A stretch of DNA of 32,000 nt from Candidatus Saccharimonadota bacterium (GCA_004563595.2 CP042461.1:900001-932000), one strand, 5' to 3'. Shown: positions 3,976 to 28,898, counted from the stretch's first letter. The notes: generated from the letters alone by a model not told the origin. Numbers and translations: made by a program.

Positions 3976-4063
3976 ATTTTTTTATAGTATAATTGACTTT
4001 ATTTTAAATTTATATATAAATTTATCACATGTTTTTTAAAAAACAATACTCTAGGAGCATAAC

Positions 4064-4549
4064 ATGATATTTACAACTGTAAATTTCGGACGCTACGAAA
4101 ATAAAAATAAAACTTTACCGCAAATTCTTTTTGATGATGCTGATTGGTTCTTTTACCAATATGAACGAAATCATTTTAAAGGAGCTTTAGCTAACGAATC
4201 TGAATATCTATACCATAGGGCAAGAAATATTTGTATTCCAAAAGAACACCCAGACAATTGGAAGGTAGAATACATGCAGCAACACCCCTCACAAAAATTT
4301 GCTTCTATGATGATCGTACAATTAAGCAAACCTAATCATGAAGGAATAAGTAAGGCTACATATATGGATAGAATCGATATGCGTTTTCCAAAATCTATAG
4401 GTGATTACGATAAACTCGGATATCAACTGTTTATAAAAAATATGAAACATTGTATTTTTGGATCTACAACAATACGTATGACCAAAAAAAAATGTGAGGA
4501 CTTCTTTCGAGATGACTCAAAATTTTTTCTATGATCTACTTTCTCATAG
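4064..4549 (+). CDS. Hypothetical protein, UGA-free ORF; the standard-code stop TGA at 4532-4534 would be read through to TAG at 4547-4549 under table 25
   Basis: 156-aa standard-code ORF with all 6 Gly encoded by GGN and no internal TGA. Classic AGGAG at 4053-4057, 6 nt before the ATG. Under table 25 the terminal TGA adds G-S-T-F-S before TAG. The N-terminal FGRYENKNKTLPQILFDDADWFFYQYE weakly recalls DUF3820-type FGKYKGKTL motifs (low confidence). A strong terminator follows. Confidence 0.65.
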
Positions 4550-4560
4550 AACTACAATAA

Positions 4561-4597
4561 AAAGCCTTTGTTTTATAATAAAACAAAGGCTTTTCTT
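4561..4597. terminator. Bidirectional rho-independent terminator between convergent genes
   Basis: Perfect 14-bp stem aaagcctttgtttt (4561-4574) / aaaacaaaggcttt (4580-4593) with loop ataat and a T-rich tail. It sits between the stop at 4549 (plus) and the stop at 4635 (minus). Confidence 0.85.
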
Positions 4598-4634
4598 TTA
4601 GTTAAAAATTTCAGTAATAAATATACATAATTAA

Positions 4635-6689
4635 TTATACTTTCACCTGCCTCTTCTTCAAAACCTTCGCAAGTACAATAGTAATAATAAATAATATGGC
4701 TGCGAAATAGAGCATTGTAATATCAATATCACTAATAGCTTGGCTAAATGATTCTATTTTTTGATTATGAAACGCTGATCAGGCAATAACAAATACTGAA
4801 GCTCATGGGATTATTCAGATAAGAGTAGCAAGGAAGAATCCTTTAAAGTTAATCCTTAAGAATCATGAAATATAGTTTACAAGATCAAATGGAAAAAATA
4901 ATAATCTCGTCATAAGGATCGTCATAAATGGAGATTCATTTGCTTTACTCTTTAAATCATCTACCAGTCATCCATGTGAATCTGGTCAGATAATTTTTTT
5001 CCCAAAAACAGTTCATAAGAAATAGGCAAATGCTGCACTCATATTTTCCCCCACTAATGTGAAAGCAATTCATAACCAAGGACCAAACAATGCACCAGAC
5101 ATAAATGTCATCAAAGTAGCTGGGAATAATACTACTGGTCTAATTGCATAAAAAAGTATGTATATAAATGGCCCAATTGCCATGTTTCCAGATATAAAAT
5201 TATAGATATTTATCGCGATTTGCTCCACATCTAAATTGTTCATCTTTTTATAATAAAAAAATGAAAATATAATTATGAACCAGATAGTGGCTGTTACGAC
5301 TTGGAGTATATTATCTTTGATATAATATTTTGCTTCGTTTTTTATATTCCCCAAAGTATGAATCACAAAACTATCACATACTTTTTTGATGAGTTCTGCT
5401 TTGGTAGGATATGCAAAAATAGTTTTAGAAATCTTATATGCTGAGATATTATTCTCCATTGCTGAAACAAGTATAGGTAACATTTCTCATGCTTTCGTTC
5501 AAGCAATAGTGGCTCATAAAATCTTTCAACTTACTCTTTTAAAATTAATTTTTACAAATCAAACTTCATCATCAGTAAGTTTGCTTCTATCATTTCCTGA
5601 AAAATACAGTGTCTTTGTTACAATATCATCCTTTGAATAATATTTTAATAATTCTGTTCATGTCTTTCATACTCTTGCTATCTCTGTATTTGTATATAAC
5701 ACAGCTGGTAAAACCGACTTTTTTACTGATTTTTTTAAAAATGGAACTAATATGTTTCTTATTACACCTCTTCATTCATTATTTGCAAGGTGAGTAAATT
5801 GAGGATTTCACTTCACACAATCTCATATAGCATATATATTTTTTGAGGATGTTCTGTTAAATTTATCTATAGTTATCCCCTTCTGATCAAACTTTATATT
5901 CGCATTTTTCATATCTAATCCATTCACATTTGCCCCTCTTCATAATGCAATCAAAACTTTATCAAAAGGAATTTTTCTTTCTTTCTTTCAATCCTTATCC
6001 AGAATAACAAGCTCTTTTCATTCAGCTCTCAGAGCAGTTGTATTCTTGCATATTTTTATTCATTTACTTTCAAATATTTTTTCAAGTAATTCTGAAGACT
6101 TTCCTTCTTCTCTTGGGATAAGATTCTTATTTCTTTGGAGAATAGTTACATTGACATTACTATTTGCAAATGATTCTGCAAGCTCACATCCAATATATCC
6201 TCAACCAATAATAACTAATTCTTTTATATTTTCCTCAAGTTCAAATACATTTTCATTTGTAAAAATATCTTTTTTATCGAGTCCTTCAATAGGAACTATA
6301 TTTGCATGTGATCAAGTAGAGATAACAATATTTTTCGCTGTAATTTCTTTTTCTCCATCTATGAGAACTGTATTTTTATCTTTAAAACTGGCAAATCAAC
6401 TGATAACTTTCATTCCATATTTTTCTAATTTTTCTTTTGTCTCTTCATCTCTGATTACTTGCCTTCTTTTTCGTACTTCTTCTAAGACTCATTTTATATC
6501 TTTGTGATGTCCTTTTTTTGCAATATCAATAAAAGCTTTTGATGGCACACATCAAAAGTTAGTACAGTCCCCTCAAAAAAATCATTTTTCTATTAATGCA
6601 ACTTTCTTTCATGCTCATGCAAGTCATATAGAAACTGTGAGTCATCCTGATCCAGATCATATTACTATTACATCATAATCAAATTTCAT
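4635..6689 (-). CDS. Fusion protein: N-terminal FAD-dependent pyridine nucleotide-disulfide oxidoreductase (dihydrolipoamide dehydrogenase/mercuric reductase-like) plus C-terminal DedA/TVP38 (SNARE-associated) membrane domain
   Basis: 684-aa ORF (ATG 6687-6689, TAA 4635-4637), checked codon by codon for absence of TAA/TAG. N-terminus: MKFDYDVIVIGSGSGGLTVSI (FAD fold), redox-active disulfide GGDCTNFGCVPSK, NAD fold LVIIGGGYIGCELAE, and dimerisation region ILGATIAGTKAGEMLPILVSAMENNISAYKISKTIFAYPTKAE. This runs directly into TM helices and the DedA-like YAIRPVVLFPATLMTFMSGALFGPWLG. The junction lies inside standard-code ORF 5070-5483, so the fusion is not a recoding artefact. Confidence 0.85.
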
Positions 6690-6846
6690 TTCTATTTTCT
6701 TTAAGTTTTAATATTAAATTAATCATATTGAATTACCTTAAGTAAATCTTAAAAATCTACAATAAATAATTTTTATTTTAGTGTTTTTTTTACAAAAACA
6801 TTATTTTTTATATAATACATCTAAATTATATCCTAATATATATTTT

Positions 6847-9081
6847 ATGAATATGAAAAAACAAGCATTTACTATTATCGAGCTTATAGTTGCTATTACA
6901 ATAATGGCTATTATATCAATAATAGCATTTATCTCTCTCCAATGATATTCCAAAAATGCTCGTGATTCAGTGAGGCAATCTGATATTGCACAAATTACCT
7001 CTGTAATGTGATTGTACGAAAAACAAGTATGAAGGTTTCCAAAACCAACCGAATGAGTAGATATAACATATAGTTGAGCACAAGTTTGGAACCAATGAAC
7101 TATTTGAGATAGCGTAATACTAAATTTATGAGATTTTAATCAAAAGCCTGTTGATCCCCTTACCTGATCAGAATATACATATTCAAGACTTAATACAAAA
7201 AGTGAATATGAAGTAGCTGCTGTAATGGAGTGATGAATATCACAAAATATATTAACAGGAAATACATACGCAGAGTGAAACATAACCTGATATACCTATA
7301 TAAGATGAAATTATAATAAAATACTTGCAAAAGTGAATACTTGATCTATTACTTATGTTTTAGGAGTCCCTACTATTATTTCATGAGATATAACGCTAAG
7401 AGATATAATTTCACTTATGCAATCTTCATCTCTCGTGTATAATGGCTCATCTAATTTACCAGCAAGTTATATATGAACTAGGTTCAACTCAAGTTGAAAT
7501 GGTGGATGATTTACATTTAATCCATGAAATATTGTAGCCTATACATGAACTACTGAATCTCTTAGTGATATAGATAATCAAGTGACATTGTTCAATAATT
7601 TACAAACAATTTATACAGCTACTGATGTAGTAAATAATAATGGTATTATTACAAAAATAGTTGATGCAGATGATTGAACTGTAGAAGAAAAGATATTAGC
7701 GAGTATAATAGTAAAGCAACATATTAATTCTTGAATAGAATTATATACGGATACGTGACCTGTATACTTTGTAAGTTCTATCACAACAAACGCATCAGGG
7801 AAATCATATTGAGAATCCATTATTTATGATTCTTCTTGATATATATATATAACAGGTTTGTACAAGTGAGATGTAACAATTTGAACTGATACATATTCTA
7901 GTGCTTGAAATTACGATATATTCTTAGCAAAATTTGATTCTAGTTGAAATTATATATGGAGTCAATCAGCTTGATGAACCGGGAAAGATGTCCCTTATAT
8001 GTTAAATATAGATTCCAGTGATAATTTGTATTTAATATGAAGATTCTCAGATTGAAGTCCTGATATTTTTTGAACAACATTTACTAACTCATGAGATTAT
8101 GACATATTTTTAACAAAATTTGATTCTGATTGAAATGTATTAATCAATAAAAAGTGAGGTTGAACTTGAAATGATAGACCAAAAGGGATAGTAATTTGAA
8201 ATGATTGATCTGTGTATATAACATGACAATATGACTGAACTGCTGATATTTTTTGAATGTCTATCAGCTCTCCTGACGCAAATCCTGATAGTTTTGTAGT
8301 GAAGTTAGATAATACATTAACAAGCACATGGGTCCAAAATGCAAACTCAATTTGAATTGATTGGTGAAATACTATTGCTATAGAGGATATAACTTGAGAC
8401 CTATATATAGCTTGATCTTTTTCAGATAATATGACTTTATATTGAGCCGCTATCACTACTTATTGACAAGGTGATTCATACCTACTTAAAATGAATAATT
8501 CAGGGGTATTACAATGGATAAATACTTCTTGATGAGTATGATATGAAGAGTCTGAACACGTAATCATTGATAATAACTGAGATATTTTTTTTACAGGGTG
8601 GTTTAGATGAATCTCTGCAACACTATTTTGAGAAGTTGTAAGTTCACCAGATAATGGTAGTCGTAATGATACCTATGTTTCAAAATTAACGAGTAATGGT
8701 GTCCTTGTATGGAATAGTATTTGAAAATGACCCGGAAATGATTATGGGCAAAAACTTGCACTAGATAATGATTGAAATATATATTCAGTTTGATCTGTTT
8801 GATTATGAGAAAATAGTTTATTTGGAAAAACTGTCACGACATCGGTAGATGGGGTTACCTATGTAAGCAAGCTTGACTCTAATTGAAATGCTCTCTGGAG
8901 TAAGTTATATTGAGAACATAAAATTAGAGATGATTATTCGGATATAAAGTTTGATGGAACAAGTCTATATCTAGTATGAGGATACGAATGAACATCAACG
9001 GTTGCGTGACAAAGTCTTACAGCTATTTGATCAAATGAAGCATTTTTTGGTAAAATAAACGCGGATTGAAATATTGAATAG
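6847..9081 (+). CDS. Giant type IV pilin/pseudopilin-like protein with a C-terminal beta-propeller-repeat (SBBP-like) domain
   Basis: 744-aa ORF (ATG 6847, TAG 9079-9081), frame checked throughout. N-terminus MNMKKQA|FTIIELIVAITIMAIISIIAFISLQGYSKNARDS is a prepilin-type leader plus hydrophobic helix with Glu at +5. Also a pilin-like QKPVDPLTGSEYTY. The C-terminal two thirds carry repeated units of the type FLAKFDSSGNYIWSQSAGGTGKDVPYMLNIDSSDNLYLIG, FLTKFDSDGNVL, VSKLTSNGVLVW, LDNDGNIYSVG and VSKLDSNGNALW, in which many of the Gly are TGA. Confidence 0.85.
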
Positions 9082-9091
9082 TAAATAGAAT

Positions 9092-9124
9092 AAAAAAAAG
9101 CTAGAGTATATCTAGCTTTTTTAT
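9092..9124. terminator. Bidirectional terminator shared by convergent genes
   Basis: aaaaaaaagctaga-gtata-tctagctttttt: stem gctaga (9100-9105) / tctagc (9111-9116) flanked by an A-run and a T-run. The TAG stop of the minus-strand ORF (9101-9103) lies inside the stem. Confidence 0.7.
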
Positions 9125-9493
9125 TTTATAATAATTTTCTACTTTTATAAAAAAGTCTGAAATTACCTTATTATTTTTTTGAGCCTTGTTTTCAACAGCA
9201 TTGTGTTTCCAATACATTAAAGCCCCCTCACTAAAATCATTGTGCTGTAATATTTTATTACTAACAAACACTATTACTTTCTCTTCTCCTAATTTTATAA
9301 CAATATTATCCCTTATAGAAAAGGAAAGATTATCAATAACACAAAGCTTTGATGATTTACCACATTTTTTATCTTCAGCATGTTTTATCAAAGAAGATAT
9401 GACGTTTGCGTTCTCAACTCCATAATAAATTTGTGTTTTTATTGTAGAACAAGAAACAATTAAGCTTAATAAAAATATCAGAGAAATTCTCAT
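9101..9493 (-). CDS. Small putative lipoprotein, hypothetical (UGA-free)
   Basis: 130-aa ORF intact in both codes. Signal peptide with lipobox MRISLIFLLSLIVSC. All 4 Gly are GGN. SD-like AAAGGA lies 8 nt upstream of the ATG (GG at 9503-9504). Confidence 0.6.
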   Translation of the reverse strand: MRISLIFLLSLIVSCSTIKTQIYYGVENANVISSLIKHAEDKKCGKSSKLCVIDNLSFSIRDNIVIKLGEEKVIVFVSNKILQHNDFSEGALMYWKHNAVENKAQKNNKVISDFFIKVENYYKIKKLDIL

Positions 9494-9561
9494 TTTGATA
9501 GTCCTTTAAGAAAAAGTACTTGAACTATACATTTAATTTTTTGATATGCAAGCGGAGCTTC

Positions 9562-9596
9562 AAAAAAAGACGAGATTTCAAATCTCGTCTTTTTTT
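9562..9596 (-). terminator. Rho-independent terminator of the trx-ccdA-msrAB operon
   Basis: Perfect 10-bp stem agacgagatt (9568-9577) / aatctcgtct (9581-9590). On the minus strand it directly follows the msrAB TAA and is followed by a T-run. Confidence 0.85.
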
Positions 9597-10689
9597 ATTC
9601 TTCAAACATCTTCACATATTCTCAATACCCTTCTCCTTCTAAATCTTCATCAGCTATAAATTTCAGAGCAGCTGAGTTAATACAGTATCTGAGTCATCAT
9701 TGATCAGATGGTCAGTCTGAGAAAACATGTCAGAGATGGGAATCTGCTTTTTCGGACCTGACTTCAGTTCTTGTCATAAAAAACTTTGTATCCTCTACTT
9801 CTTCTATGTTTACTTTATCAATAGGCTTCGAAAAACTTGGCCAACCAGATCATGAGTCATATTTATCTTTTGATGAGAACAATGGGGTCCCATCAACTAT
9901 GTCTACATAAATTCCTGCTTCTTTATTATCATTGTATTCATTATCAAAAGCTCTCTCAGTTGCATTTTCCTGAGTCACTCTATATTGAAGGTCTGTGAGT
10001 CTTTCTTTTAAACTTTCCTTATCATTTTTTGTTTCTACTTTTTTTGCAGAATCTCACCATGTATCTTCTATATATCCTTCCCTTCATGATCATTTTGCAT
10101 AGATTTTATATTTCAAGGCAGATTTCTGTGCGTAATCTTGATGGTACTCTTCTGCTTTATAAAAAGCAGTAAATGGAAGTATTTCAGTTACTATTTTTTC
10201 ATCATACTTTCATGAGTCGTCTAATATCTTTTTTGAATTTTCTAAAATTTCTTTCTCTTCAGGAGTATTATAGTACATCGCTGTTGTGTAGTGAAAACCT
10301 CTATCAGCAAATTGTCATCCTGCATCTGTTGGATCTATTTGCTTCCAGAATAAAGAAACGAGATCTTCATAGTTTACAATTTCTGGATCAAAAACTACTT
10401 TTACTCATTCTCTATGTTTTGTATTTCAAGATGAAACTTCTCAGTATGTGGCAGTTTCTTCTGTTCATCATAGGTATCAGCTTGTTGCTTCGATAACACC
10501 ATCTTGAGCATCCATTATTCACTCAATACACCAGAAACAACCTCAGGCTATGTATAATTCTCTTGCATTTTCTGTTTCCATAGTTTTTTTTGTTATATCT
10601 TCTACCTTTTCCCCATTATTCACATGAACAAAAGCAGAAACTAAAATTATAGTTGCAACAATTCCTAGAACTGTTCATATAGTTTTCAT
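9595..10689 (-). CDS. msrAB: Membrane-anchored/secreted peptide methionine sulfoxide reductase MsrA-MsrB fusion
   Basis: 364-aa ORF, no in-frame TAA/TAG. N-terminal TM/signal [21 protein letters not shown]. MsrA motifs: AGGCFWCIEG, SGYLGGTEETATY, HREGVKVVFDP. MsrB motifs: [20 protein letters not shown] (G = TGA at 9730-9732), [10 protein letters not shown]. Confidence 0.93.
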
Positions 10690-10691
10690 AA

Positions 10692-11423
10692 TTATTTATT
10701 TACTTTATCTAAAATACTCTGTTCAAAATTTGTAATATCAAATATTCCAGCATCAATAACAGCTGACTCAAAGTCTTTATCCCATCACATTATAATTGCA
10801 AAACCTAAAAATAGAAATAATACTCATAGTACTTTTTTAAATTTTGATTTTGGACTTGAAATTCATTTTACTTTTGATATAAATTTCTGACCAAGAAGAG
10901 CTATAAGTAATAATACTACACTCAACCCAGTTACATATGCAAGAAGGTTTATAATTCCTGTCATAAAACTTGCTGGCAGTACCACGGCAAGAATAATTGC
11001 ATATGTTGGACTACAGCTTGAAAAGACAGGACCAAGAGAGAGTCAAACCATAACACTTCATATATGTCATTTTTTTTGAGCACTTTTTCACAATAATTTA
11101 TTTGAATTACTTGAAAATCCTAACTTTGTAGAAATATTTTTCCATACATCTGGAAATAATGTTACAATTCAAAACCCTATAATAAGAACTCATGAAAATA
11201 ACTTCCAAACGATTGGATCAATAGCAATAAACAGAGTTGTTGCTTTGAGTACGAGCGAGAATACAATAATTGATGCAGCAAGTGACAGAATAATTATATA
11301 TGGTCGTATTTTATCTTTTGCATCTTCTATACTTGCTCATAAAATCACTGGTAAAAGAGGTAAAACACACGGAGATAATATGGTTAAAACTCCTGCGAAA
11401 AATGATACTATTAGTAGTCACAT
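10692..11423 (-). CDS. ccdA: CcdA/DsbD-family thiol-disulfide electron-transfer membrane protein
   Basis: 243-aa ORF, ATG-TGA start at 11418-11423, TAA 10692-10694, 2 nt upstream of the msrAB ATG. Motifs: AGVLTILSPCVLPLLPVILG and second-half LGPVFSSCSPTYA. Multiple TM helices. Confidence 0.9.
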
Positions 11424-11450
11424 GATTATTTTTTATTATTAAATAAGCCC

Positions 11451-11488
11451 CTTGAATTCTTTCCCCTTATAAGGGGAAAGAATTCAAG
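11451..11488 (-). promoter_or_regulatory. Long perfect intra-operon stem-loop between the thioredoxin gene and ccdA
   Basis: 18-bp perfect inverted repeat cttgaattctttcccctt (11451-11468) / aaggggaaagaattcaag (11471-11488) with a 2-nt centre, locally GC-richer than the flanks. It sits 10 nt after the upstream stop and 27 nt before the ccdA ATG. The minus-strand downstream sequence GGGCTTATTTAATAAT is only weakly U-rich. Confidence 0.5.
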
Positions 11489-11498
11489 TGAAGAGGTA

Positions 11499-12755
11499 TT
11501 AAGATTTCACTTCAGCTAAAATATCTTTTACACTTCTTGATCCGAACCATTTTTTTATCATGTTTCCATTATCATCAATTTGTACAAAAGTGTGTTGTCA
11601 AACAACTTCATATTGTTTTCTTAAAGCAGTACTCGAGTCAAAATCTACTTTAAAGATATTTAATCAAGCTGGTATAGTTTCTGCTGAAATATTCTTGTCA
11701 GCTGCTTTACAACTACTACACCAAGTTGCATGGAAGAATAAAATTTTATCTCATAATGCATTTTTTACTGCTTCTTGTGAATACTCAACATATTGTCATA
11801 TATTATTTTTCACTTCCTCAGTTTCTAAAACCGGCTGAACTTCTACCTCTACTTCTTCTTTTACTTCTGTTTTTGTTTCTTCTTGTATCTCTTCTTTTAC
11901 TTCTGTTTTTGTTTCTGTTTTCACTTTTATATTTTTATGTTCTCCTAGTCCACTTAATATATCTTCTACTGTTTTTGAAGCTCTCCACATTTTTAATTTA
12001 TTCATTTTTTTATCTACTTCTACAAAAGTATGCTGAGAAGTGACTCCGTATTTTTGTCTTAATTCAACATTTGAATCAAAATCTATTTTAAAAATACTTA
12101 AACCAGCTGGTATTTCAGATCCTCTCAGACTCGTATCAGCAGCTTTACATGTTGCACACCATGAAGCATGAAAGAATAATACTCTTCTTCATTTCCCTGC
12201 TTTTACTTCTTCTGCTACATTTGATTCAGTCACATCTTTATAAATACCTTTTTCAAAAGTCACAGATGTTTTTTCAGAAAATCATACTTCTCATTCTATA
12301 TCTTCTATAGTTTTTCCTCAAATCCACTTTTTTATCATATTTCATTCATTATCAACTTGAACAAAAGTATGTTGAGCAACGATTCAATATTTTTTTCTTA
12401 ACTCAAAATTTGAGTCGTAATCTACTTTAAAAACACTTAATCCAGAGGGAACTCATGATTCAGTTATATTCTTATCAGCAGTTTTACAACTCCCACACCA
12501 ACTTGCATTAAAAAATAAAACTTTCTTTCATTCTGTATTTTGAATAGCTTCTTTACTGTATGTAATATATTGTCATTTAGATTGATCTAAAGAAATATCT
12601 TTTATTTGTTTATCTTCAGTTTTTTGATCTTCTATATTTGTAACATTTGCAACTTTAGAATTTGTATCCTCCTGTACCTTTTGGTCTTGTCATGATGTAC
12701 ATGATGCTAAAAATAAAACTCATAAAATAGGTATTAAAACAAGTAATTTTTTCAT
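11499..12755 (-). CDS. Lipoprotein with three tandem thioredoxin-like domains (WCGSC, WCATC, WCSSC)
   Basis: 418-aa ORF (ATG 12753-12755, TAA 11499-11501), frame checked. Lipobox MKKLLVLIPILGVLFLASC. Three paralogous modules of about 95 aa each carry VLFF(N/H)A(S/T)WCxxCKxAD ... GL(S/N)(V/I)FK(V/I)D(Y/F)DS ... QHTFV(Q/E)(V/I)D. A K/E/T-rich linker separates modules 2 and 3. Confidence 0.9.
11855..11916 (-). repeat. Tandem 36-nt repeat in the K/E/T-rich linker of the triple-thioredoxin gene
   Basis: Identical 26-nt core cttcttttacttctgtttttgtttct at 11855-11880 and 11891-11916 (period 36 nt), encoding the repeated ETKTEVKEE units. Confidence 0.8.
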
Positions 12756-12904
12756 CTTTTTTTAAGATTAATATATAAAATGTATGTACATAATAAAACT
12801 CTACCTTAAATTATTCTTAATAAAATAATTATTTGAAAAATACTAAAAATATCTATAATGATTACCTGAAAATATAATTAATAACATTACTTAAACCTAA
12901 AGAT

Positions 12905-13813
12905 ATGCACGCAATAAAAATAAAGAAATTAGTGAAAAAATACGGGAAATTAGAAGTACTGAAGAAGATAGATTTAGAAGTAGAAAAATGAGATTTTTTT
13001 GCTCTTTTATGACATAATGGTGCTTGAAAAACTACTATTATTTCTATTCTTACCAACCTCGTAAATAAAAATTCTTGAAAAATTGAAATAAATGGAATCG
13101 ATATAGATACAGACTTCAAAAAAGCAAGAAGCTATATATGAGTGGTCCCTCAAGAATTTAACTTTGATATTTTTTCAAAAGTACAGGACATCCCTCTTAT
13201 TCAAGCAGGATATTATGGAATTGATAAAAAAACAGCTGCAGAGAGAACAGAAAAGTATATGAAAAAACTTGGTCTCTGGGAAAAAAGAGATGTAAAAGCT
13301 AGAGAGCTGAGCTGATGAATGAAAAGAAGGCTTATGATAGTAAGAGCACTGGTTCATGAGCCAGAAATACTTATTCTTGATGAACCAACTGCTTGAGTAG
13401 ATGTAGAGCTCAGAAAAAGTATGTGGGAATTTATAGAGGGGCTCAATAAAGCTTGAACTACTATAATACTCACAACACATTATTTAGAAGAAGTTGAGGC
13501 TCTTTGTAAAAATGTTGCTATCATGCATAAGTGAGTTATTGTCGAAAATACATCTGTAAAAAACCTCTTATCACAATTAAAAAAAGAGACTATCATTCTC
13601 TCTACATCAAATGAGAATATTAAACTTGATGCAGCATTCAAAAGAAAATACTCAGTAAAATTACATGAAGACAATGAAATAGAATTAGAAATCTCTCAAA
13701 AACACTCTCTCAATGAACTTTTTAAAGAGCTTGATAAAGCAGGAATAGAGGTTACCAGTTTTAGAAACAAAACAAATAGACTCGAAGCATTATTTATGAA
13801 ATTATTAAAATAA
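12905..13813 (+). CDS. ABC transporter ATP-binding protein (ABC-2/drug-exporter type)
   Basis: 302-aa ORF. Walker A LLGHNGAGKTT (TGA at 13010-13012 and 13025-13027), signature LSGGMKRR (both Gly are TGA, 13313-13318), Walker B ILILDEPTAGVD, H-loop LTTHYLEE. 10 of its 18 Gly codons are TGA. Confidence 0.93.
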
Positions 13814-13824
13814 AAATTACAACT

Positions 13825-14580
13825 ATGATAGATTTAATCACACTTACAAATAAAGAAGTCTCTAGGTTTTTAAGAGTCTGGAAACAAACACTTCTACCAC
13901 CAATAATTACAATAGTTCTCTATTTACTTATATTTTGAAAATTTATCTGAGATAAAATTTCAATTGTAGAATGAGTAAATTATATAGATTTTATATTTCC
14001 ATGATTACTCATGATGTCTGTTATTATGGCGAGTTATCAAAATACCAGTTCATCATTCTTTGGTTCAAAATTTCAGCATAATATAGAAGAGCTCTTTGTT
14101 TCTCCAATAGCACATTGGAAGATACTCGTTTGATTCTGTGTATGAGCTATTCTCAGATGAATGATGGTATGATGATTTGTGTTTCTTGTATGAATATTCA
14201 TGGTAGACTTAAATATAGTCAGCTATGCATACATGTTTTTATTCTTATTTCTCAGTTCAACTCTCTTTGCTTTATTATGACTCTTTAACGGTATATTTGC
14301 AAAGACATTTGATGATATTGCTATCATTCCTTCATTTGTAATTACTCCTCTTATTTACTTATGATGAGTATTTTATTCTACAGACCTCCTCTCACCTATT
14401 TGGCAAGCAATCAGTCAAGTGAACCCTATTCTCTATATGGTAAATGGTCTCAGGTACGCTTTTATAGGAATTACGGATGTAAATATAAACCTTGCTATCT
14501 GAATACTAGTGACCTTTATCATAATCTTTATATCTGCAAATATGTATTTATTGAAAAAATGATATGGTATTAGAAATTAA
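13825..14580 (+). CDS. ABC-2 type transporter permease
   Basis: 251-aa ORF starting 11 nt after the ATPase stop. About six hydrophobic helices. N-terminus LTNKEVSRFLRVWKQTLLPPIITIVLYLLIFG and a C-terminal region NPILYMVNGLRYAFIG typical of ABC-2 permeases. Confidence 0.85.
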
Positions 14581-14615
14581 AAAAAGACTCTGTAAAAATT
14601 ACAGAGTCTTTTTTT
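14581..14615. terminator. Bidirectional terminator between the ABC permease and the A2M gene
   Basis: aaaaagactctgta-aaaat-tacagagtcttttt: stem gactctgta (14586-14594) / tacagagtc (14600-14608) flanked by an A-run and a T-run. Confidence 0.85.
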
Positions 14616-14622
14616 AATTTCT

Positions 14623-17600: not shown

Positions 17601-20600
17601 CTGCTCATGCTACATATACTACTTTTGAACTTATAAACTCTTTGTTATTTTTTCAAGTATAGATTGCTTTGATAAGATATTCTCATGAAGTTTTTGTTTT
17701 AATGTTCTTTTTGAATTCTCCAAGAGTATTTGTAGAGGTAAAAATATCTTTTTCTTTTATTTCTTCAAGTGAATAATCATTATAGAACACTCCATCAACT
17801 CACTTTTTTTTCACTGATTTCCATTCTCTTTTAATCAGTTCTAGTTTCACTTTTTTATTAGCGAGTACTTGAGCATCAAAATTAAGCACTACTCAATTTA
17901 TATCTATTCAGCTTTCTTTACTATTATAATAATTTGTTTTTATCCCAACGTATGCATCTGTGGTATGAAGAATTTTTGATACTGATTTATTTACCACTCT
18001 TTTTGTATCAGGATCAGTCACCTCTATATTAAATCTGTGAAGCTTTTCTCAGAAATTATCATCAAATTTATAAACTAGATTATAAGTTCCATCATCATGA
18101 ATATCAAATGAGCTCGTGTCGATAAGCTTATCACGATAGTTACAGTATCCCCAATACACACATTCAAAATATTTATATCATTCTCAAAAATTATAATCAG
18201 AATAGTCTTTGGCATCAAAGAAATAGTTTTGAGTAAGTATACTATATTTTCATGATGTATTTATAATTTTCCCACCAAAGTAATACTCAGGTTTCACTTG
18301 TATTTGCACCGAGTCTCATAGAATAAAATCTTTTTTGCTCTCAGAGGTTTCCAACTTAAAGTCTGGTTTCCTATACTCTTCAATATGGAAAAAAGCATTA
18401 TTTCTTACACTATTTTTGTCTGCTGTTCCAGTAAACCTAAAACGAAATTTTCATAAATTTACTTCTGCTGGTATAATAAATTCTCCTGAAAAATTTGAAT
18501 TATCATCTATTGTAATATCTTTTGAGGCTATACTTTTTCCAGATGGATCTATCAGTTCTAGCTTTGCTGTTTCACTTTTTGATTTTGTATATCATGTTGG
18601 AGAAAAATATCTTAATAATCATTTAAAGTAGACGATATCTCCTGGTTTATAAATAGGTCTTTCAGTATATAAATACAAATAATCTTTTTGTGATGAACTC
18701 TCACCTGAGATATATTTAAAATCATAATTTGAAAAACTATCATATCTCAAGTTTAAAAATCAATAATTATTTTCTCATGATGCAGCTACGTAACTAAAGT
18801 CAGAGTTTTCTATTTCATATACTCCATTCACATATGTAGATTTTGGTGTTACAACACTATCTTCCTGTTTGTATGACTTTTTATTATATTGAGTTTTATA
18901 AAACTTGAGATTAAGGTTTGGAATACTATTTCACCCAAAGTCAGTGATATATAATAAATTTTTATTTGATGCTTTCTCAAAATATACCGAAAGATTTGAT
19001 TTTTTATATGTTGTCTCAAATTTATCCTGTCATGGATGTGTTCATGCTGAAACTATAATAAACTTCTGGGTGAATTTAGTTCCTAAAATATCTTCTTCTA
19101 AATCAAACCTGTTATTTGATAGATTCCAATTATAATTTTTTAATTGTAGTTGTTTTGTTTGTGTATTATTACATTTTTTAACATATCAGTTCTGGTACCT
19201 ATTTGCCAGATGATATATATAATTTATCTCATCCATTTCACATACTTCTACGTGTGCTTCACTATTATTAATAGATTGTAAATTCATTACTATCGGCAAA
19301 TTATCAGGAATAGTGTTTACATCATTTGAAAGGCCTGAATAAAGATATTTATCTTTATCTAAAATGTCTTTTGTTTCTACTTTGTATTCAAGCGTATTTT
19401 CTAAACTATTATTATATATATCCACAAAGTTATTCTCGATTGCAAGTAAGTAGCTTGAATGTGGATTGAGCCTTGTATTTAATACATAAAGAAATTCTCA
19501 TGATTTTGCTTTTCTACAATATCATAATTCTTCTAATTCTTGATCAGGTTTTCATTTTAATTTATAGGGTATATGTTGGTACCCACTTACTCATTTTTGA
19601 ATAGATTCAGGGCTTGTACTATATACATGAACACTTTGTTTCCATGCGTTTATTTCATTATTGAGGTATAAACATGTTTTTGAATAATTAATAAATTTCA
19701 AATCTTTCACTATCAGTTTGTCTGTTGTATCATAAGTAGTCACAATGTCATCTGTGAGAGATTTATTTATAACTTTGAGTACTTGAAGAGTATAAGCTGT
19801 TTTATAATTCAGATCTGTCTTTAAAGTGAGTTTAATTTTCTTTTTATTAATAACTACTTCATCCTTTTTAAGTTCTTTATTATATTTTTTTTCTTCTCTA
19901 TAACTGATATCAAAGTCTATTTTTTCATTATTACTCGAAAAAGAAAAGTTAGTTTTATTCAACTCTACTTCTTCATAAAAATTTAAATGAAAAAATAGAT
20001 CTTTATTTGCTATTTTACTTTTGTTACGCTGATAAGTGGAGTCTAATAAAACTCATGTTGAAGAATATATATTTTGGTATGCATCAATACTATCTAAAAG
20101 CTCTATCGTTTTGAGCTGTTGAAATATAGGTTTGGTAGTAGAGATATTTCCATTTTTAGACTTTAATCCAGTTGCTATTTCTAGAGTATATTGGCTGTTA
20201 TATGTAAATCCATCATGAGAGAGAGAAAAATGAGTATCTGATATTTTTAAAACTTTTACATCAAGTGCTGGGCTTTTATTTTTTGCTCAAATTTTATTCT
20301 CAAATAATTTGAATTTACTTTTTAATTCATCGATACTGACAGGAAAATTAAAATTGATATTAATTCCCTCAGTTGGAGCAAAATTTTGAGAAAAATATGC
20401 TTGTAGCTTTGTTGTTGATAATTCTATTTCTTTTGTTTCTTGAAGTTTATATAATAAACCTTCTCTATCCTCTACTTTTACTGAATATTTTGTTGCTCAA
20501 ACAAAAGAATCATTAGGAGTAAATTCTAAAACTGAAGTTGTGGTCCAACTACATTTTCATTCAATTTTTGGTTCAATAACTATTGGACATGGAAGAGAGT

Positions 20601-21120
20601 CTCTTGAATCTAAATCTGTAAGAGGAACCATTGGTATATTAAAAAATACAGCCAAGCTTTGTCACAGATTATTTAATTCTCATGATGGAGTTATTTTGAG
20701 AACTTTTGCTCACGAAACAATTTCAATAAGGAAATGAATATCACTTTCAAGTGCCCTTCATTTTTTTGTTTGTAATCATTTTAAAAAACTAATACTCAAT
20801 TCATCTCAAGTCTTATTCTTCTCAAGAAAGGTATATCTGAGTACATTTGATTGAAGCATAGATATCTTCCCTTCAATATTTGATTCAAAGTTTTGTATAC
20901 TTGTTTCATCTAAATCATACGAAAAAGTGAAGTCTATATGATCTTCTGTTACTGGTATTTTTTTATATCACAAATCAAAATTTCAAGCTGTAACTTCAAA
21001 TTTTGCAGGGGCTAGGTTTTCAAAAAAGTTTGTATTTTTTTGAAAATGAAAGAACCCAGTAATTACAAATATAAATATTACTAGAGCTGAAATCATTGCA
21101 TATCTTTTCCTCTTTTCCAT
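14623..21120 (-). CDS. Bacterial alpha-2-macroglobulin family protein (thioester-containing, N-terminally membrane anchored), 2165 aa
   Basis: Every triplet from 21120 down to 14623 was checked: no TAA/TAG and dozens of TGA. N-terminal anchor MEKRKRYAMISALVIFIFVITGFF. MG-domain signatures TERPIYKPGDIVYFKG and FHIEEYRKPDFKL. RGTFKDTAYWSADVTTDTNGKVSMTTTNLPDNLTTWVIETLA. Thioester site YPYGCSEQ. C-terminal receptor-like region VAFEGFIPAGSELVNPNL ... EYRTDRYFAYTDRLYNGIHNFSYLIRLTHAGEYHIKPTKISEFYNVEVFGRTRGEIFKVK. Confidence 0.92.
16249..16272 (-). other. Thioester motif YPYGCSEQ of the A2M homolog
   Basis: The minus-strand codons TAT CCA TAC GGT TGT TCT GAA CAA can be read directly. This is the CxEQ thioester signature (E. 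coli YfhM has CLEQ, eukaryotic A2M has CGEQ). Confidence 0.85.
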
Positions 21121-21237: not shown

Positions 21238-22065
21238 TTATTTTTTTGTTTTTATAATGAATCAAATAATGAAAATAATAAAAATTCAAATAATATAGTA
21301 TAAATTACCGATTTTATTATTTTCAGAAATAGCTAGTATTTCTTCCTTATCCAAGAAATCCTTATTATCTATATAATTTAAATTTTTATTTATAGCACTT
21401 TTACCTTTGCAGAATCATCCATTTTTAATAACTTCATTTACAATTTTTTGCTGAATTGCTATTTTTTCTTCCTCAGAACTATATTTTTCATATGGAATTC
21501 ATATAGATTCAAATATAACAGGTCAAATACCTTCAAACAAAGAGTTGCAATCTATAACTCAGTCTATTCATATCCCTGTTCAGTCTATTTTCGTAATACC
21601 ATTTTTCAAATATACCTGAGAAATTTCTTCTTCCCATTGATCTTCAGATTTTTTTTCAGGGGTATTTCTATTTATAGCAAAGTCTCCCCTCTTATCTCTA
21701 TAATTAGTGATAATAGTGTCTCATTTTTGAGGACGATATCATCCATTTTTCACATATTCCGATGCTATCATATCCAAAGAAAACTCACTCGTTGAAACAT
21801 ATACTCATTTACTCAATAACTTGGTTTCATCTCATCTATGAGTAAAATATTTATAATTTTCAAGTTCAAACACATAATACTTTCTCTTATCCTCTCATAC
21901 TTCTAAAGAATAATATGGATCTTTATCCAAAGTAATAATCTTTACATTTCATACCTCTCATAAAATAAAACCATATTCTATTTCATTAAGTCATTTTCCC
22001 CCTCAAGCAAAAGAGTCAGCAAGAAGAAATATTTGCAGTAATAATATGCATAATATTTTTTTCAT
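21238..22065 (-). CDS. Hypothetical exported protein with an N-terminal signal peptide and a C-terminal hydrophobic anchor plus basic tail
   Basis: 275-aa ORF under table 25, frame checked, with many in-frame TGA. N-terminus MKKILCILLLQIFLLADSFAGGG. C-terminus NNKIGNLYYIIGIFIIFIIGFIIKTKK-stop. No recognisable catalytic motif. Confidence 0.7.
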
Positions 22066-22090: not shown

Positions 22091-22114
22091 AAGGGTGAGT
22101 TTAAACTCACCCTT
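22091..22114 (-). terminator. Terminator hairpin after the amidase-domain gene
   Basis: Perfect 10-bp stem aagggtgagt (22091-22100) / actcaccctt (22105-22114) with loop ttaa, followed on the minus strand by ATTTTA (modest U-tract). Confidence 0.65.
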
Positions 22115-22134: not shown

Positions 22135-22821
22135 TTAGTTACGATAAAATGTTGGTCTATACACATGAAACACTGTATATGTTTGATTAATTGACTGTAA
22201 TGTAACATTTTTCTGTGAAGAATGACCATCACTATTTTGGTAGCTTACCTTGATGCCACTATATGAATTATATAGCTTATCAGTCACTATCATAGAATGA
22301 TCAATATGCCCATTTCCTGACCAATCAGCAAAAATAACATCACCCTCTTCAACTTTTGAAGTATTCAAGTATTGCGTTGAACTATCTTTGGTTATAAAAT
22401 CAAAGTGCATCCCCCAATATGAATTTGAGTTACTTTTTGCATAAGTGTAGAGTTCATGAGCACCAGCCCATGCATAACCTCGTGATGATGGAGTATTATA
22501 ATACCAACAATAATCACACCCTTTATCTCTATCTGCCATATAATAGCCACGCTTATTATATACATAGTTCTTGTCAGAATTATCTACCAAACCAGCTAAA
22601 ACTGCTTGACTAACAAAGTTAGTACAGTTTCCACCATATGATTGATACTCTGGAAATGCAGTACTAGTTTTTGCATAATTCAATGCATACTGTACTGCTG
22701 GAGTACTGGAATAAGTACAAACCCCCTTAGCATAGTCACCACATGAGCTTGAACTCGCAGACATAGCTACACTTGAAAAAAATGAAGCTAGTACAATCAA
22801 AACAACAAAAATTTGTCGCAT
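22135..22821 (-). CDS. Secreted putative cell-wall amidase (Amidase_6 / NlpC-P60-like papain-fold domain), UGA-free
   Basis: The ORF is uninterrupted in the standard code. Preferred start is ATG at 22819-22821 (MRQIFVVLIVLASFFSSVAMSA signal peptide); the stop is TAA. Motifs: AVQYALNYA ... YGGNCTNFVSQAVLAG (Cys nucleophile context) and GHIDHSMIV (His). All 15 Gly are GGN and none is TGA. Trp is TGG. The sequence is visibly less AT-rich than its neighbours. SD-like AAGGAAAAG lies upstream of the ATG. Confidence 0.8.
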   Translation of the reverse strand: MRQIFVVLIVLASFFSSVAMSASSSSCGDYAKGVCTYSSTPAVQYALNYAKTSTAFPEYQSYGGNCTNFVSQAVLAGLVDNSDKNYVYNKRGYYMADRDKGCDYCWYYNTPSSRGYAWAGAHELYTYAKSNSNSYWGMHFDFITKDSSTQYLNTSKVEEGDVIFADWSGNGHIDHSMIVTDKLYNSYSGIKVSYQNSDGHSSQKNVTLQSINQTYTVFHVYRPTFYRN

Positions 22822-23149
22822 TTTTCTTTTCCTTTTGTTTGTGTTTTTACTTCCAACCTTGAAAGCACACAAAATATATGAAAAAACTTTTCTTTTACAA
22901 ATTTATTCTCGACTTTCTTCTCTATTTTAAGCCATTTTAACTTTTCAAGACATTCATTATAATGACAAGACATTAACAGGACATTAACAAAAATAATTTT
23001 CTATTTTTAAATGTTAAAAACTTAATTTTCATCCCTTTAAATTCTGATTTTTATTTTCATATTTTTAAAAAATATTTTTTTATCTTCTCTATATTGATAA
23101 TTCAGGTCATTTCTATACAATCAATATATAATCTTCTCATCAGAAAAAA

Positions 23150-25190: not shown

Positions 25191-26063
25191 CTATTCCCTA
25201 CTATCACAATATGGATCTAAATGAATCATCACATTCCGAGTAAAATTTTTATTAATTTTTGGAATGGCATATTCCACATGATCTGAAATCCTATGTGCAT
25301 CAATGAGCTTTATTTCAGGAGTAAATACTAAGTGAATTTCTACAAACTTTCTGTGCCCTGATTGCCTAGTTTTTAATTCATGATATGAAGTGATCAAAGC
25401 TTGTTTATCTATTATTTTAATAATTTGATCTATTTCTTCTTTATCCAAAGATATATCAAGCAACAATCAATATCACTTCTTTATGAGATCAAATGCTGAA
25501 TAAATAATATACAATGATATTATAATTCATAAAATCGCATCAATAATATAAAATCATGAAAAATGAATGATAACAAGTCATAGTAAGATAACAAGATTAC
25601 TGTACAGGTCTGTTTTATAATGAAGTGAATCTGCATGAATTACGATATTTTCAGTTTGTTTTGCTACCTTTTCTAAAAAATATACTAAAAATCAGGTAAT
25701 AATAACTGATATTATCATCACTCAGATAGAGTAGCTTAAGTACTCTACTTTCTCATTTCCTATAAGCTTTAAAACTGCTGTATAAAAAATAAAAAAACCT
25801 GAAAAAGTAATGATTAATCATTCAAATAGTGCAGCTAACGCTTCTATTTTCCCCCTTCAATAATTAAAAATCCCATCCTCTTTTTTTTCTGAACTTGAAA
25901 CTGCAAAATAATTAAATAATGACACGAATAAATCAAGCAATGAATCTATTGCAGATGATAATACAGCTATTGAACCACTTAAAATTCATATTGCAAACTT
26001 CATAACGAGGAGTAAAAATGCAACAACAGATGAAATAAGAGTGGCCTTTTTTTGTAGTGACAT
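25191..26063 (-). CDS. Cation diffusion facilitator (CDF) family divalent metal efflux transporter
   Basis: 290-aa ORF (ATG 26061-26063, TAG 25191-25193). TM region with SGSIAVLSSAIDSLLDL, FNYGRGKIEALAAL and HADSLHYKTDL. C-terminal cytoplasmic domain YHELKTRQSGHRKFVEIHLVF ... AHRISDHVE. Confidence 0.88.
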
Positions 26064-26113
26064 AGTTATGCTTATGAAATATTGTAACAAGTATAATTGT
26101 AAATCATTAAAAT

Positions 26114-26147
26114 ACAAAAAAACTGAGCTTTCGCTCAGTTTTTTTTA
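26114..26147 (-). terminator. Rho-independent terminator of der
   Basis: Stem aactgagc (26121-26128) / gctcagtt (26133-26140) with loop tttc, between an A-run and a T-run. It begins at the der stop codon and lies upstream of the CDF gene start. Confidence 0.8.
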
Positions 26148-27521
26148 TTTCACTACATCAACATGTTTCCCTCTTCATTTATACTCAATTGTAATTGGAG
26201 TTCCAAAGAATCCGAAATTATCTCTGATTTTATTTTCAAGATATCTTTTATATGAAAAATGAAAATGATTTGGATTATTTACTGTCAGTACAAACTTTGG
26301 TGGATTTACGTCTGCTTGAGTTCAGTAATATATTTTTGGATTATGTGATTTTTTATTTCAAGTTGGTGGATGTTTATAAATAACTTGCTCCATGAAGTTA
26401 TTAAAAATTCAAGTTTTTACTCTTTTAAAACGTTCTTTTTTAATTTCTTCTGCATTTTCTAAAATCTCATCAACTCTTTTTCTTTGCGTAGCTGATGTAA
26501 ACACAACAGATACCCATGGAAGAAACTCTATTTTACTCTTTAGGTAATCTACATACCTATTCATCATTTTTTCTTTATCTACTCCCGGTTTATCTAAAAC
26601 TTTATCCCATTTATTTACGACGATAACAAGTCATTTTTTTTCTTCAAGTACTTTTGAAATAATAGATAAGTCTTGATGTACAATACCATCAAAACCATCT
26701 ACAACTACAGCAATAACATCAGCTCTTGTAATTGCTCTATTGGTTCTCATTACTGACCAATCTTCTATATTTCTCACTCATACTTTTGAGAGCCTTCTTA
26801 CTCATGCTGTATCAATAAGTACAAAGTCTGATTCTTTAAATTTGAATTTTGTATCTATGCTATCTCTTGTTGTATGGTCCATATCTTGTACCATTACTCT
26901 ATTCTCTCAGACTATAGAGTTGATTAAACTTGATTTCCCTACATTTGGTCTTCATACCATTGCGAGTTTTACAAATGAATCATCAATTTCTTCATGTTCA
27001 TAATTCAGTCCTTTTTTAGTTAAGAAATCTGCAACAAATCTTTTGATATCTTTCATCCCTGTATTATGAGATACAGAAACTGGGAAAAATGCTAAATTAT
27101 CTCCGTATCCAGCATGTGAATACGCTTCCATAATTTTGCTTTCGTTATCTGCTTTATTAGCGACAAGAATAACATCAGAAATATTCTTTTCTCTGATTAC
27201 TTTTAATACTTGTTCATCAAGTTCAGTGATTCTATCATATTCAATAATCCATATGAGTAAATCACTTGATTCAATTGATTTTTCTGTTCTCTCTGCAATA
27301 TCTTTTGTGATTTCATCTGTTTTTGAGCTAAAATCTAGCCCACCTGAATCTGATAATATATATGTTAAATTATTATCTTCATCATTGTACTCATATTCAG
27401 AAATATCTCTTGTTGTCCCTTCTTCATCAGCGACAATTGCGATTTTATGTCCTGAATACATATTGAAAAAACTTGATTTCCCTACATTTGGTCTTCAAAT
27501 TATAGTTACTTTTGCTAACAC
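26145..27521 (-). CDS. der: Ribosome-associated GTPase Der (EngA), two tandem GTP-binding domains plus KH-like C-terminus
   Basis: 458-aa ORF, frame checked. No ATG after the upstream in-frame TAA, so GTG at 27519-27521 is used. GD1 P-loop [14 protein letters not shown] (G = TGA at 27495-27497), DSGG, NKAD. GD2 [23 protein letters not shown]-terminal [23 protein letters not shown]. Confidence 0.92.
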
Positions 27522-27604
27522 GTGTTGATTGGTTTAAGAATTTAAATTTTTTTTGACTGTCTGAGTATATTGATTTTTCAAAAAAAACAAGTTTTAGTAA
27601 GAAC

Positions 27605-28519
27605 CTAAAACTTCCCTGTTTTTTTCAAAAATAAATATACCATGAACATTATTGCAACACTTCAGAGTAAAAGTATATAGACAAAATCTGGAGTAGTCCA
27701 GGTTGGAAGTTCTATATTCATTCAGTAAAAACTGGTAATGAGTGTAAGTGGTAATAAAAAAGCTGAAAAAATAGCTAATACTTTTAAAACAAAATTTGTT
27801 TTAATATCAATCATAGCTTTAAATGCATCTTCAACACTATCAATATATTCTGCTAATATATCTATATCACTTAATATTTGATCTAATTTATCTTCCAAAT
27901 CTTCAAAATATACTTCCATTTCTCACGCATATAACTCATTCACTATATGTTCAAGTTGTTTCAATAAAGCAACTTGTGGTTTAAACATATGTTTGAGTAC
28001 AACTATATTTCTTTTTTTGATCATTATCTCTTTCACCAATGAAGAATTTCATTTTTCAAAAACTTTTTTTTCTAAATTTTTAATGTCTAATTTGATATTT
28101 TTTATCATATTAAACATTTTCTCAAGCATAGCTTGAGTGATTTCATATAATATATATCCAGTTGATATTTTTAATTTTTTTGATTCTCATGATACCTTCT
28201 TCTCTCAATAATTTTCAAAAACTTTATTAATTCTTGAAAAAGGAAATTCTCTAAATGTTATTAAAAAATCTTTACTTAAAAACATATTAAACTCATTCAG
28301 TTCATATACTTTTGTTGCTCTATTATATTTTGGATAATGATATACAACAAAGGTATAATCATCATATTTATCAACTCTTGCTCTTTGGTTTCCTTCTAAA
28401 CAAGCTTCTAAATCAAGTTCATGGATCTTATACTTTTCAAGAGTCTTCACAATATCTTTATCAGATAACCCAACCCCATCTATCCAGTGAATTCCGTTTA
28501 TTTTTTGTTTTTTTAGCAT
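27605..28519 (-). CDS. corA: CorA-family magnesium/cobalt transporter
   Basis: 304-aa ORF (ATG 28517-28519, TAG 27605-27607). Signature LLPLTLITSFYGMN, in which the G of GMN is TGA at 27722-27724. Two C-terminal TM helices ending KKTGKF. Confidence 0.9.
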
Positions 28520-28658
28520 ACCCACAAATTTACAAGCTATAATATTAAAACAGTTTATATTACAAATGAGTTTTGTAAAGATTTTCCTCTAAAAAATTGC
28601 ATTTTTTTGATATTATCCTAATATGATAATGTTTTCAACGTCAAAGAAGGAAAGTACC

Positions 28659-28898
28659 ATGAAAAAAGGTAACTTTAATAATGATCTAGAAAATATACAA
28701 AAGTGCTCAGAAGAAATTGTAAATGATATTCTTTCCAAAATCATGAAAGGAGACCTTAACCAAATTCCTAAATTAAAGTCATTTACAGAAGATGAATTAA
28801 CTGAGTTAACTAGACTTTTTAAGTCAAGTACACCAGATAGACAAGTCAAACCAATACCTATTCAATTTCGACTTATCCATCATCATCCAAAAAATTAA
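28659..28898 (+). CDS. Small hypothetical protein (79 aa from ATG 28659; an in-frame upstream ATG at 28623 would give 91 aa)
   Basis: The ORF ends at TAA 28896-28898 and has no TAA/TAG/TGA inside. AAGGAAAG lies 7 nt before ATG 28659. A clean terminator hairpin follows. No recognisable domain. Confidence 0.5.
   Translation: MKKGNFNNDLENIQKCSEEIVNDILSKIMKGDLNQIPKLKSFTEDELTELTRLFKSSTPDRQVKPIPIQFRLIHHHPKN

Follow-up and report, generated by a model that had tools for sequence, protein, structure and literature searches.

Four open reading frames among TGA-rich genes

We analysed a window of 32,000 nucleotides from a chromosome deposited as Candidatus Saccharimonadota bacterium (GCA_004563595.2 CP042461.1:900001-932000) and concentrated on four of its open reading frames (ORFs), here called A to D, which have Shine-Dalgarno (SD) boxes and, with a single exception, encode glycine with GGN codons among genes that use TGA for it. 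The window has a GC content of 28.6%, and long ORFs appear only when TGA is read through, giving about 22 genes under genetic code 25. In-frame TGA makes up as much as 9% of the codons of these genes, which also use TGG, and it encodes the invariant glycine of the Walker A G-x4-GK[ST], ABC LSGG, Der DxxG and FAD GxGxxG motifs, indicating that TGA is read as glycine. The ORF C protein is 100% identical to A9Q91_04280 of Ca. Gracilibacteria bacterium 28_42_T64, a code-25 organism whose genome has been closed (1.34 Mb), with genes predicted under code 25 and no prfB found (Sieber et al. 2019). TGA accounts for 381 of the 634 glycine codons (60%) of the TGA-containing genes in the window. A first-pass annotation of the same sequence had put the share at about half in the neighbouring genes and had correctly counted 10 of 18 in the ABC ATPase, the other eight being GGN.

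ORF A (A9Q91_04225; 4064-4549, plus strand) encodes 161 amino acids under code 25, with six GGN codons and one TGA, and its SD box AGGAG (4053-4057) lies 6 nt upstream of the ATG. ORF B (A9Q91_04240; 9101-9493, minus strand) encodes a protein of 130 amino acids with a lipoprotein-type signal peptide (…LIVSCS), has four GGN codons and no TGA, and is preceded at 8 nt by AAAGGA (9502-9507, minus strand). ORF C (22135-22821, minus strand), with 16 GGN codons and no TGA, encodes 228 amino acids comprising a signal peptide and an Amidase_6 domain (PF12671), and is a putative cell-wall amidase; its SD-like box, AAGGAAAAG, occupies 22826-22834 on the same strand, 4 nt from the ATG. ORF D (28659-28898, plus strand) is an ORFan of 79 codons with two GGN and no TGA, led by the SD-like box AAGGAAAG (28647-28654), again 4 nt from the ATG.

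All four frames had been described as free of in-frame TGA, and this held for B, C and D, which stop at TAG, TAA and TAA, respectively. ORF A, whose end had been set at 4534 with the TGA at 4532-4534 taken as the stop, in fact reads through this TGA, its only one, as glycine and ends at the TAG at 4547-4549, as in the 161-residue NCBI protein, leaving the tail GSTFS. A terminator scan found that each of the four ORFs ends at its own intrinsic terminator: a bidirectional hairpin directly after ORF A (4560-4594), another bidirectional one at the 3′ end of ORF B (9094-9122), one between ORF C and the next gene (22091-22114, minus strand) and one after ORF D (28922-28949, plus strand). Hairpins were also seen by eye in the intergenic sequence 3′ of the ORF C orthologues on contigs L004, L008, L089 and L091. 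Each of the four ORFs sits singly between TGA-rich housekeeping genes, and the class is one of monocistronic cassettes with their own terminators. The same arrangement recurs in an independent Logan assembly.

TGA avoidance and Shine-Dalgarno boxes

The SD boxes of the four ORFs were confirmed at the positions first given for them, with predicted duplex energies of -5.3 to -6.5 kcal/mol against the anti-SD sequence ACCUCCUUA (A, -6.5; D, -5.7). The annotated starts of the TGA-containing genes gave -2.2 to +1.7 kcal/mol, which upholds the earlier observation that these genes have no comparable motif. No rRNA was found in the window or in the code-25 loci that we fetched. Relatives of the class were located on the code-25 contigs L004, L005, L006, L008, L017, L089, L090, L091, L097, L178 and L180, and we surveyed 88 genes with at least four glycine codons in ten code-25 loci, calling an SD box at a duplex energy of -4.5 kcal/mol or lower and accepting any start codon within the first 30 codons, a rule that favours the background genes. 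The TGA fraction was bimodal, with ten genes at exactly 0, none between 0 and 0.1, ORF A at 0.14 and the others at 0.2-1.0. All ten TGA-free genes had an SD box, versus 3 of the 78 others (Fisher p = 6e-11, a value that overstates independence because the ten genes come from about five families), so codon class and initiation signal co-vary as had been proposed for the window. The three exceptions are ORF A itself, an ATG inside an alpha-2-macroglobulin gene and an incorrect start of L4, and the possibility that SD-like motifs might be just as common upstream of TGA-rich genes was not borne out in these loci.

At the background rate of 60%, the observed shortage of TGA has a probability of 4e-7 for ORF C and 0.025 for ORF B; by our own binomial arithmetic it is about 0.02 for ORF A (at most one TGA in seven) and 0.16 for ORF D, which with two glycine codons is by itself uninformative on the codon side and belongs to the class by its SD box and terminator only. 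Pooling 14 class members (the C orthologues, A, B and the L089 genes, with L097 left out) gave 181 GGN codons and no in-frame TGA, while the same genes contain TGA trinucleotides 52 times in the +1 frame and 149 times in the +2 frame. Avoidance of TGA as a DNA motif was therefore rejected, and the avoidance is specific to the reading frame.

All class members that we checked carry an SD box, though the box sequences differ. Both copies of A have AGGAG and both copies of B have AAAGGA, while the C orthologues have, at the same place, GGAGG, AGGAGG, GAGGAGG, AGAGGT, GAGGT or GGGAGG. As these G-rich boxes persist in genomes of 22-29% GC, they must be under purifying selection.

High expression was rejected as the cause. 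In the ribosomal-protein genes of L089 (part of an operon, 16573-19762), TGA and GGN codons number 12/14 in L3, 4/8 in L4, 15/19 in L2, 5/5 in S19 and 3/3 in L22 (about 45% TGA), and none of these genes has an SD box; TGA reaches 72% in the L089 background as a whole and 71% when all background genes are pooled. Compared with the background, ribosomal proteins have more AGA, CAA, GAA and T-ending codons and a G+C content at third positions (GC3) of 0.097; the class shifts in the opposite direction (r = -0.03). When EF-P of L017 (14383-14946) is taken together with the L089 ribosomal proteins, TGA makes up about 37-46% of their glycine codons versus 72-77% in nearby genes, and TGA appears to be mildly disfavoured in highly expressed code-25 genes. 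In ordinary genes of all code-25 loci TGA outnumbers GGA by about 6:1. From background GC3 we estimate a similar value, roughly 6.7:1, suggesting that TGA use is near mutational equilibrium with GGA, and mutation would then push steadily towards TGA.

Two further observations concern genes outside the class. Two large window proteins, encoded at 6781-9081 and 28972-30858, have type-IV-pilin-like N-termini, FT(L/I)IELIV, and contain 70 and 53 TGA glycine codons, one of them with a glycine-rich C-terminal repeat region. Contig L023 (OY760177.1, a 'Candidatus Gracilibacteria' chromosome of 1.93 Mb) was set aside because its code is not established: about 17 kb of it (2955-19733) holds 14 genes without TGA, either in frame or as stop, and without SD boxes, including expanded signal-peptide and lipoprotein gene families. 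If L023 used code 25, this stretch would amount to an extensive island without TGA and would run counter to the link with SD boxes.

Relatives, composition and genomic context of the class

ORF C matches PF12671 with E = 4.8e-22 and 79.2 bits (gathering cut-off, 23.2), and C66 of its NCTNF motif and D174 and H175 of its IDHSM motif are invariant in 16 sequences; the enzymatic activity of the Amidase_6 family is only putative (Pfam PF12671). The wider family occurs in Firmicutes, Actinobacteria, Proteobacteria and Myxococcota. Orthologues are TGA-free in at least eight code-25 contigs (L004, L005, L008, L089, L091, L097, L178 and L180) at 33-68% identity, the L097 copy being more distant and in another clade. 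Between ORF C and its orthologues 43-46% of the codons for identical amino acids differ, conserved glycine columns shuffle among GGT, GGA, GGG and GGC, and every new glycine position is GGN. A distant code-25 paralogue on L017 has 12 TGA and four GGN codons, showing that the Amidase_6 domain tolerates TGA.

The downstream neighbour of ORF C (21238-22065, minus strand) is a contrast gene outside the class, encoding a signal peptide and a C-terminal membrane anchor, and it is homologous and syntenic in the window, L004 and L089 (41-58% identity). It has no SD box, and its TGA and GGN codons number 17/11, 14/3 and 12/2 in the three genomes, so that the contrast with TGA-free C is a property of the single gene and C has been passed down at its present site. 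A regional or island cause was rejected, since the adjoining syntenic gene is TGA-rich. Homology of the downstream genes is confined to clade I, the C clade described below, and the idea of a two-gene module of amidase and partner common with standard-code bacteria was dropped on that ground.

In a neighbour-joining tree of the C family, clade I consists of code-25 contigs (91% bootstrap). A standard-code copy on L088 is 44-49% identical to the code-25 clades, as close as they are to each other, and its grouping with code-25 clade II has a bootstrap of just 47%; the code-25 copy of L097 falls inside a standard-code clade (82%). Judging from these placements, the amidase family has crossed the code boundary at least twice. 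The L088 contig (GC 57%), which holds the closest homologue outside Gracilibacteria, carries at 13606-20750 three alpha-lytic-protease genes with an integrase and an AlpA gene upstream, a combination characteristic of bacteria with a bacteriolytic or predatory way of life.

Several side observations concern C and its relatives. The L089 orthologue (GCA_002422305.1, 9692-10381) is probably a pseudogene, with an in-frame TAA or TAG where other orthologues have glutamine (AI*YAL). Another TGA-free gene lies 1.8 kb downstream (12187-13029; 281 amino acids, 20 GGN codons, no Pfam match) and has in common with the C orthologue a leader of about 150 nt, a GGAGG box and a signal peptide; the two give the impression of one promoter-SD-signal-peptide module that has been put to use with a second cargo. 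A run of six to nine G followed by GAGTATAAT occurs about 125 nt upstream of C-type starts (L004, ~5205-5225; L089, ~9545-9565 and ~12040-12065), which is striking in genomes of 22-26% GC and may represent an extended -10 promoter followed by a long 5′ untranslated region. A regulatory leader RNA was considered, and the C leaders gave no Rfam match and no consensus structure. The C homologue P0007, a protein from ENA, runs on past the family C-terminus (…TFYKN) with W and 23 residues, the pattern expected of a TGA-ended gene called under code 4 and a hint that some C orthologue stops at TGA.

The nearest relative of ORF A is encoded on the code-25 contig L006 (52% identity, eight GGN codons, no TGA, the same SD box). 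In an alignment most homologues of ORF A in standard-code bacteria end at …NFxL, exactly the site of the TGA of ORF A, after which four codons precede the TAG. The AlphaFold model is confident (predicted local distance difference test, 90), the last three residues of the tail are predicted to be disordered, and neither the model nor the sequence had a match in PDB. PF20600 (ExoX-like_C) matches 9 of 13 family members, with a weak N-terminal motif in A. In GC-rich standard-code contigs homologues adjoin genes for integrase, excisionase, a DnaD-like protein and primase, and 31 conjugative plasmids, most of them (28) from Agrobacterium, carry a homologue. On pTi_CFBP2788 (L176), the sole plasmid examined, the homologue (5872-6462) lies directly 3′ of traH in the traA-traF-traH region, at the end of the traAFBH operon, where it is annotated as 'hypothetical protein', a conserved, uncharacterised gene associated with conjugation. 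ORF A itself is flanked by genes for a cysteine desulfurase and a pyridine-nucleotide-disulfide oxidoreductase, with no integrase and no tRNA.

The sole relative found for ORF B lies on the code-25 contig L090 (829-1209; 54% identity, seven GGN codons, no TGA, the same SD box). The leader and about the first 60 nt of coding sequence are nearly identical in DNA between the two (window 9440-9600, minus strand; L090 690-885), and the conserved stretch includes an apparent sigma-70-type promoter, TTGCAT followed by TATAGT. No homologues of ORF D were found.

The GC3 of the four ORFs, with glycine codons excluded, is native, with z-scores of 1.2, 0.5, 0.4 and -0.1 for A to D against 15 background genes. 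The codon deviation of the class is mainly at glycine and arginine: CGN makes up 37% of its arginine codons versus 5% in the background, CAG 28% versus 11%, and GC3 is 0.19 versus 0.135. Between A, B and C and their nearest code-25 relatives (47-68% identity), synonymous sites are saturated, and all of these relatives are TGA-free and SD-led. The first-pass annotation had explained the four ORFs as imports that had not yet ameliorated, and this did not hold up, given the native GC3, the diverged code-25 orthologues that are still TGA-free and SD-led, and the C neighbour kept in three genomes. The phylogeny and synteny checks that it had suggested for import also came out against it, with C in clade I, the only relative of B in code 25, and the same TGA-rich neighbour beside C in the window, L004 and L089. 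A foreign source remains plausible in view of the mobile contexts of A, its terminal TGA, the CGN share and the code crossings of the C family, and what fails is the claim that the import was recent. Of the sources proposed at the time, the best fit is a mobile element that would work under either code.

A search of PHROGs gave a marginal endolysin match for ORF C (E = 0.005), and the window has no contiguous block of TGA-free genes with phage hallmarks, A to D being singletons. Membership in a defence system was rejected, as PADLOC gave no match for A to D or for the C neighbour.

Probable origin and maintenance of a code-neutral gene class

Code-25 Gracilibacteria thus have a small, conserved class of genes that avoid TGA in the reading frame. 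We read its members as code-neutral, SD-driven, self-terminated accessory cassettes that are old, foreign-derived and probably selected, a reading that we favour and that has, in our judgement, an even chance of being correct. The unit would comprise its own leader, a classical SD box, a TGA-free frame and its own terminator, and would be read in the same way in code 25 and in the standard code. Standard-code bacteria or their mobile elements would most likely have been the source of such cassettes, an origin that we infer for B, C and D too. They would now be old residents whose third-position composition has converged on that of the host, with the SD box and TGA-free state persisting despite the divergence of the orthologues. 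Active selection against TGA is probable from a comparison within C clade I, where CGN and AGR have switched in four of six arginine columns and TGA has switched in none of about 14 glycine columns (p = 0.003), the CGN-AGR change being the same first-position mutation class as GGA-TGA. When clade II and the A and B pairs are added, drift alone is an unlikely reason for the absence of TGA. Two candidates can be named for the agent behind code-neutrality: continuing exchange with a cross-code gene pool through conjugative elements or TGA-free phages, and translation independent of the tRNA-Gly(UCA) that all other genes need. Expression in a standard-code partner cell is the least likely selective agent.

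Several points weigh against the reading of the class as old, selected cassettes. The ten TGA-free genes reduce to about five families (A, B, C, the second secreted L089 protein and, by its SD box alone, D), and D has just two glycine codons and no homologues. Several orthologues came from a protein database largely made with standard-code calls, which favours TGA-free sequences; the unbiased finds are L008, L091 and L097 (DNA pattern and tblastn) and L089 (NCBI code-25 annotation). The duplex energies were computed with ACCUCCUUA as the assumed anti-SD sequence of the organism. In the window none of the four ORFs has a mobile-element gene beside it, and neither IMG/VR nor INPHARED yielded close viral relatives, those of C being just 26-32% identical and A having none. 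The choice between TGA and GGN is sticky in the C neighbour, discordant in just 3 of 36 glycine columns, and a two-state calibration puts the probability of drift leaving clade I without TGA anywhere from 0.06 to <1e-4, which leaves some room for an old import that has been slow to gain TGA. Vertical persistence beside a fixed neighbour is also hard to reconcile with frequent cross-code movement.

The strongest rival takes up this last calibration: an old import would be ameliorating slowly and passively, the SD box being kept as the sole working initiation signal and the first-position G-to-T change from GGA to TGA being slow, so that no selection would be involved. We consider it a serious possibility with clearly less in its favour. 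The stickiness of the neighbour gene, the conservative end of the calibration (0.06), the evidence for the foreign origin of A and the retention of CGN arginine codons, which belong to the same mutation class and decay unevenly (0/6 in L091, 4/6 in the window), all speak for it. It has to contend with 14 genes whose 181 glycine codons include no TGA across splits down to 45-50% identity, with the lack of any SD-led gene of intermediate TGA fraction, with the arginine columns of clade I, which switched over the same period in which its glycine columns did not, and with a background TGA:GGA ratio that would imply a steady push towards TGA. Recent horizontal acquisition without amelioration would likewise account for the TGA-free frames, the SD boxes, the CGN enrichment, the TGA of A at an ancestral stop and the ORFan state of D. 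It is nevertheless very improbable, and for A, B and C largely refuted, by the background-like GC3 of all four ORFs, the code-25 orthologues with saturated synonymous sites, the conserved chromosomal neighbour of C and the well-supported clade I. Chance or artefact, meaning short ORFs that lack TGA by luck, mis-assembly or spurious ORFs, could be entertained for D and B, which with two and four glycine codons are individually weak; overall we give it next to no credence, and for A, B and C it is already refuted by the probability for C alone, the Fisher test, the agreement of the Logan assembly and orthologues conserved in nine other contigs.

A codon-level expression programme, in which the class would be translated when tRNA-Gly(UCA) is unavailable or host-type initiation is off, during a life stage or a takeover by a TGA-free phage, would fit gene- and frame-specific avoidance under vertical inheritance beside a TGA-rich neighbour, strong SD boxes conserved where other genes have none, and a membership that takes in a secreted wall amidase and a lipoprotein. 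In-frame TGA is moreover absent from most phages predicted for Gracilibacteria (PMC10746230). We hold this explanation to be doubtful, as nothing points to regulation or targeting of tRNA-Gly(UCA), known defence families gave no match and the leaders showed no conserved RNA structure, and it leaves the foreign-like use of CGN unexplained. On a related and equally doubtful idea, the cassettes would be kept TGA-free, SD-led and in part standard in codon usage for translation machinery in which UGA does not mean glycine, either as an escape regulon during phage takeover or a tRNA-depleted stage, or for expression inside a standard-code host or prey after DNA transfer. In the latter version the amidase, with its Sec signal, may attack the host wall from within, by analogy with the genes of transferred DNA (T-DNA) that are built for a recipient. 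Translational optimisation of very highly expressed genes, which would account for a strong SD box and for the avoidance of a slow codon alike, is scarcely tenable: the lower TGA share of ribosomal proteins and EF-P, about 45% against 71% in the pooled background, is in its favour, but ribosomal-protein genes keep that much TGA and have no SD box, the class moves to CGN, CAG and G/C-ending codons, opposite to ribosomal proteins, and the pilin-like window genes are TGA-rich.

We found no paper describing a chromosomal class of TGA-free, SD-led genes. Stop-codon reassignment is often viewed as a genetic firewall, and these cassettes are chromosomal genes that sit on it. If selection maintains their state, either cross-code exchange is frequent enough to shape genes or a subset of genes is independent of the recoded tRNA, and either outcome, if true, would alter the view of what recoding costs and brings. 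Zero in-frame TGA together with an SD box is a simple signature for finding such genes in Gracilibacteria and Absconditabacteria genomes, and the putative secreted amidase encoded by ORF C is a candidate interaction factor of uncultured episymbionts.

The closest known parallel is among phages. Of 38 large phages predicted to infect Gracilibacteria, 34 have no in-frame TGA and their TGA stops are backed up, for which a dual-code host range has been suggested (Liu et al., mBio 2023; PMC10746230). A term search of that paper gave no occurrence of 'Shine-Dalgarno', and co-varying SD boxes were not found there. The cassettes resemble such code-11-compatible phages, predicted for Absconditabacteria as well, in the absence of in-frame TGA and in the TGA of ORF A, which is backed up by TAG four codons on, but each is a lone gene of the chromosome without phage genes around it and, for A, B and C, with orthologues in other code-25 chromosomes. 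With regard to initiation, Bacteroidota and some lineages of the Candidate Phyla Radiation are SD-scarce, and the 16S rRNA of Absconditabacteria, the sister lineage covered by that work, lacks CCUCC (PMC10783764). Most genes here likewise have leaders of A and T only and no SD box, and what sets these genomes apart is the minority class with strong, conserved GGAGG-type boxes alongside them.

Two broader concepts also bear on the class. Horizontally acquired genes, in the concept of Lawrence and Ochman, are said to be compositionally atypical at first and then to ameliorate. The foreign-type CGN arginine codons and the lack of TGA are in keeping with acquired genes, as is the occurrence of the A family as conjugative or integrative cargo. 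Amelioration predicts decay, however, and here the GC3 of the cassettes is already native while the atypical features persist in diverged orthologues. In the bldA/TTA regulon of Streptomyces, a set of genes is defined by one codon with a single dedicated tRNA. The cassettes, too, are set apart by whether they contain one codon that a single tRNA reads, but the logic is inverted, as nearly all genes here need that tRNA and a few do not.

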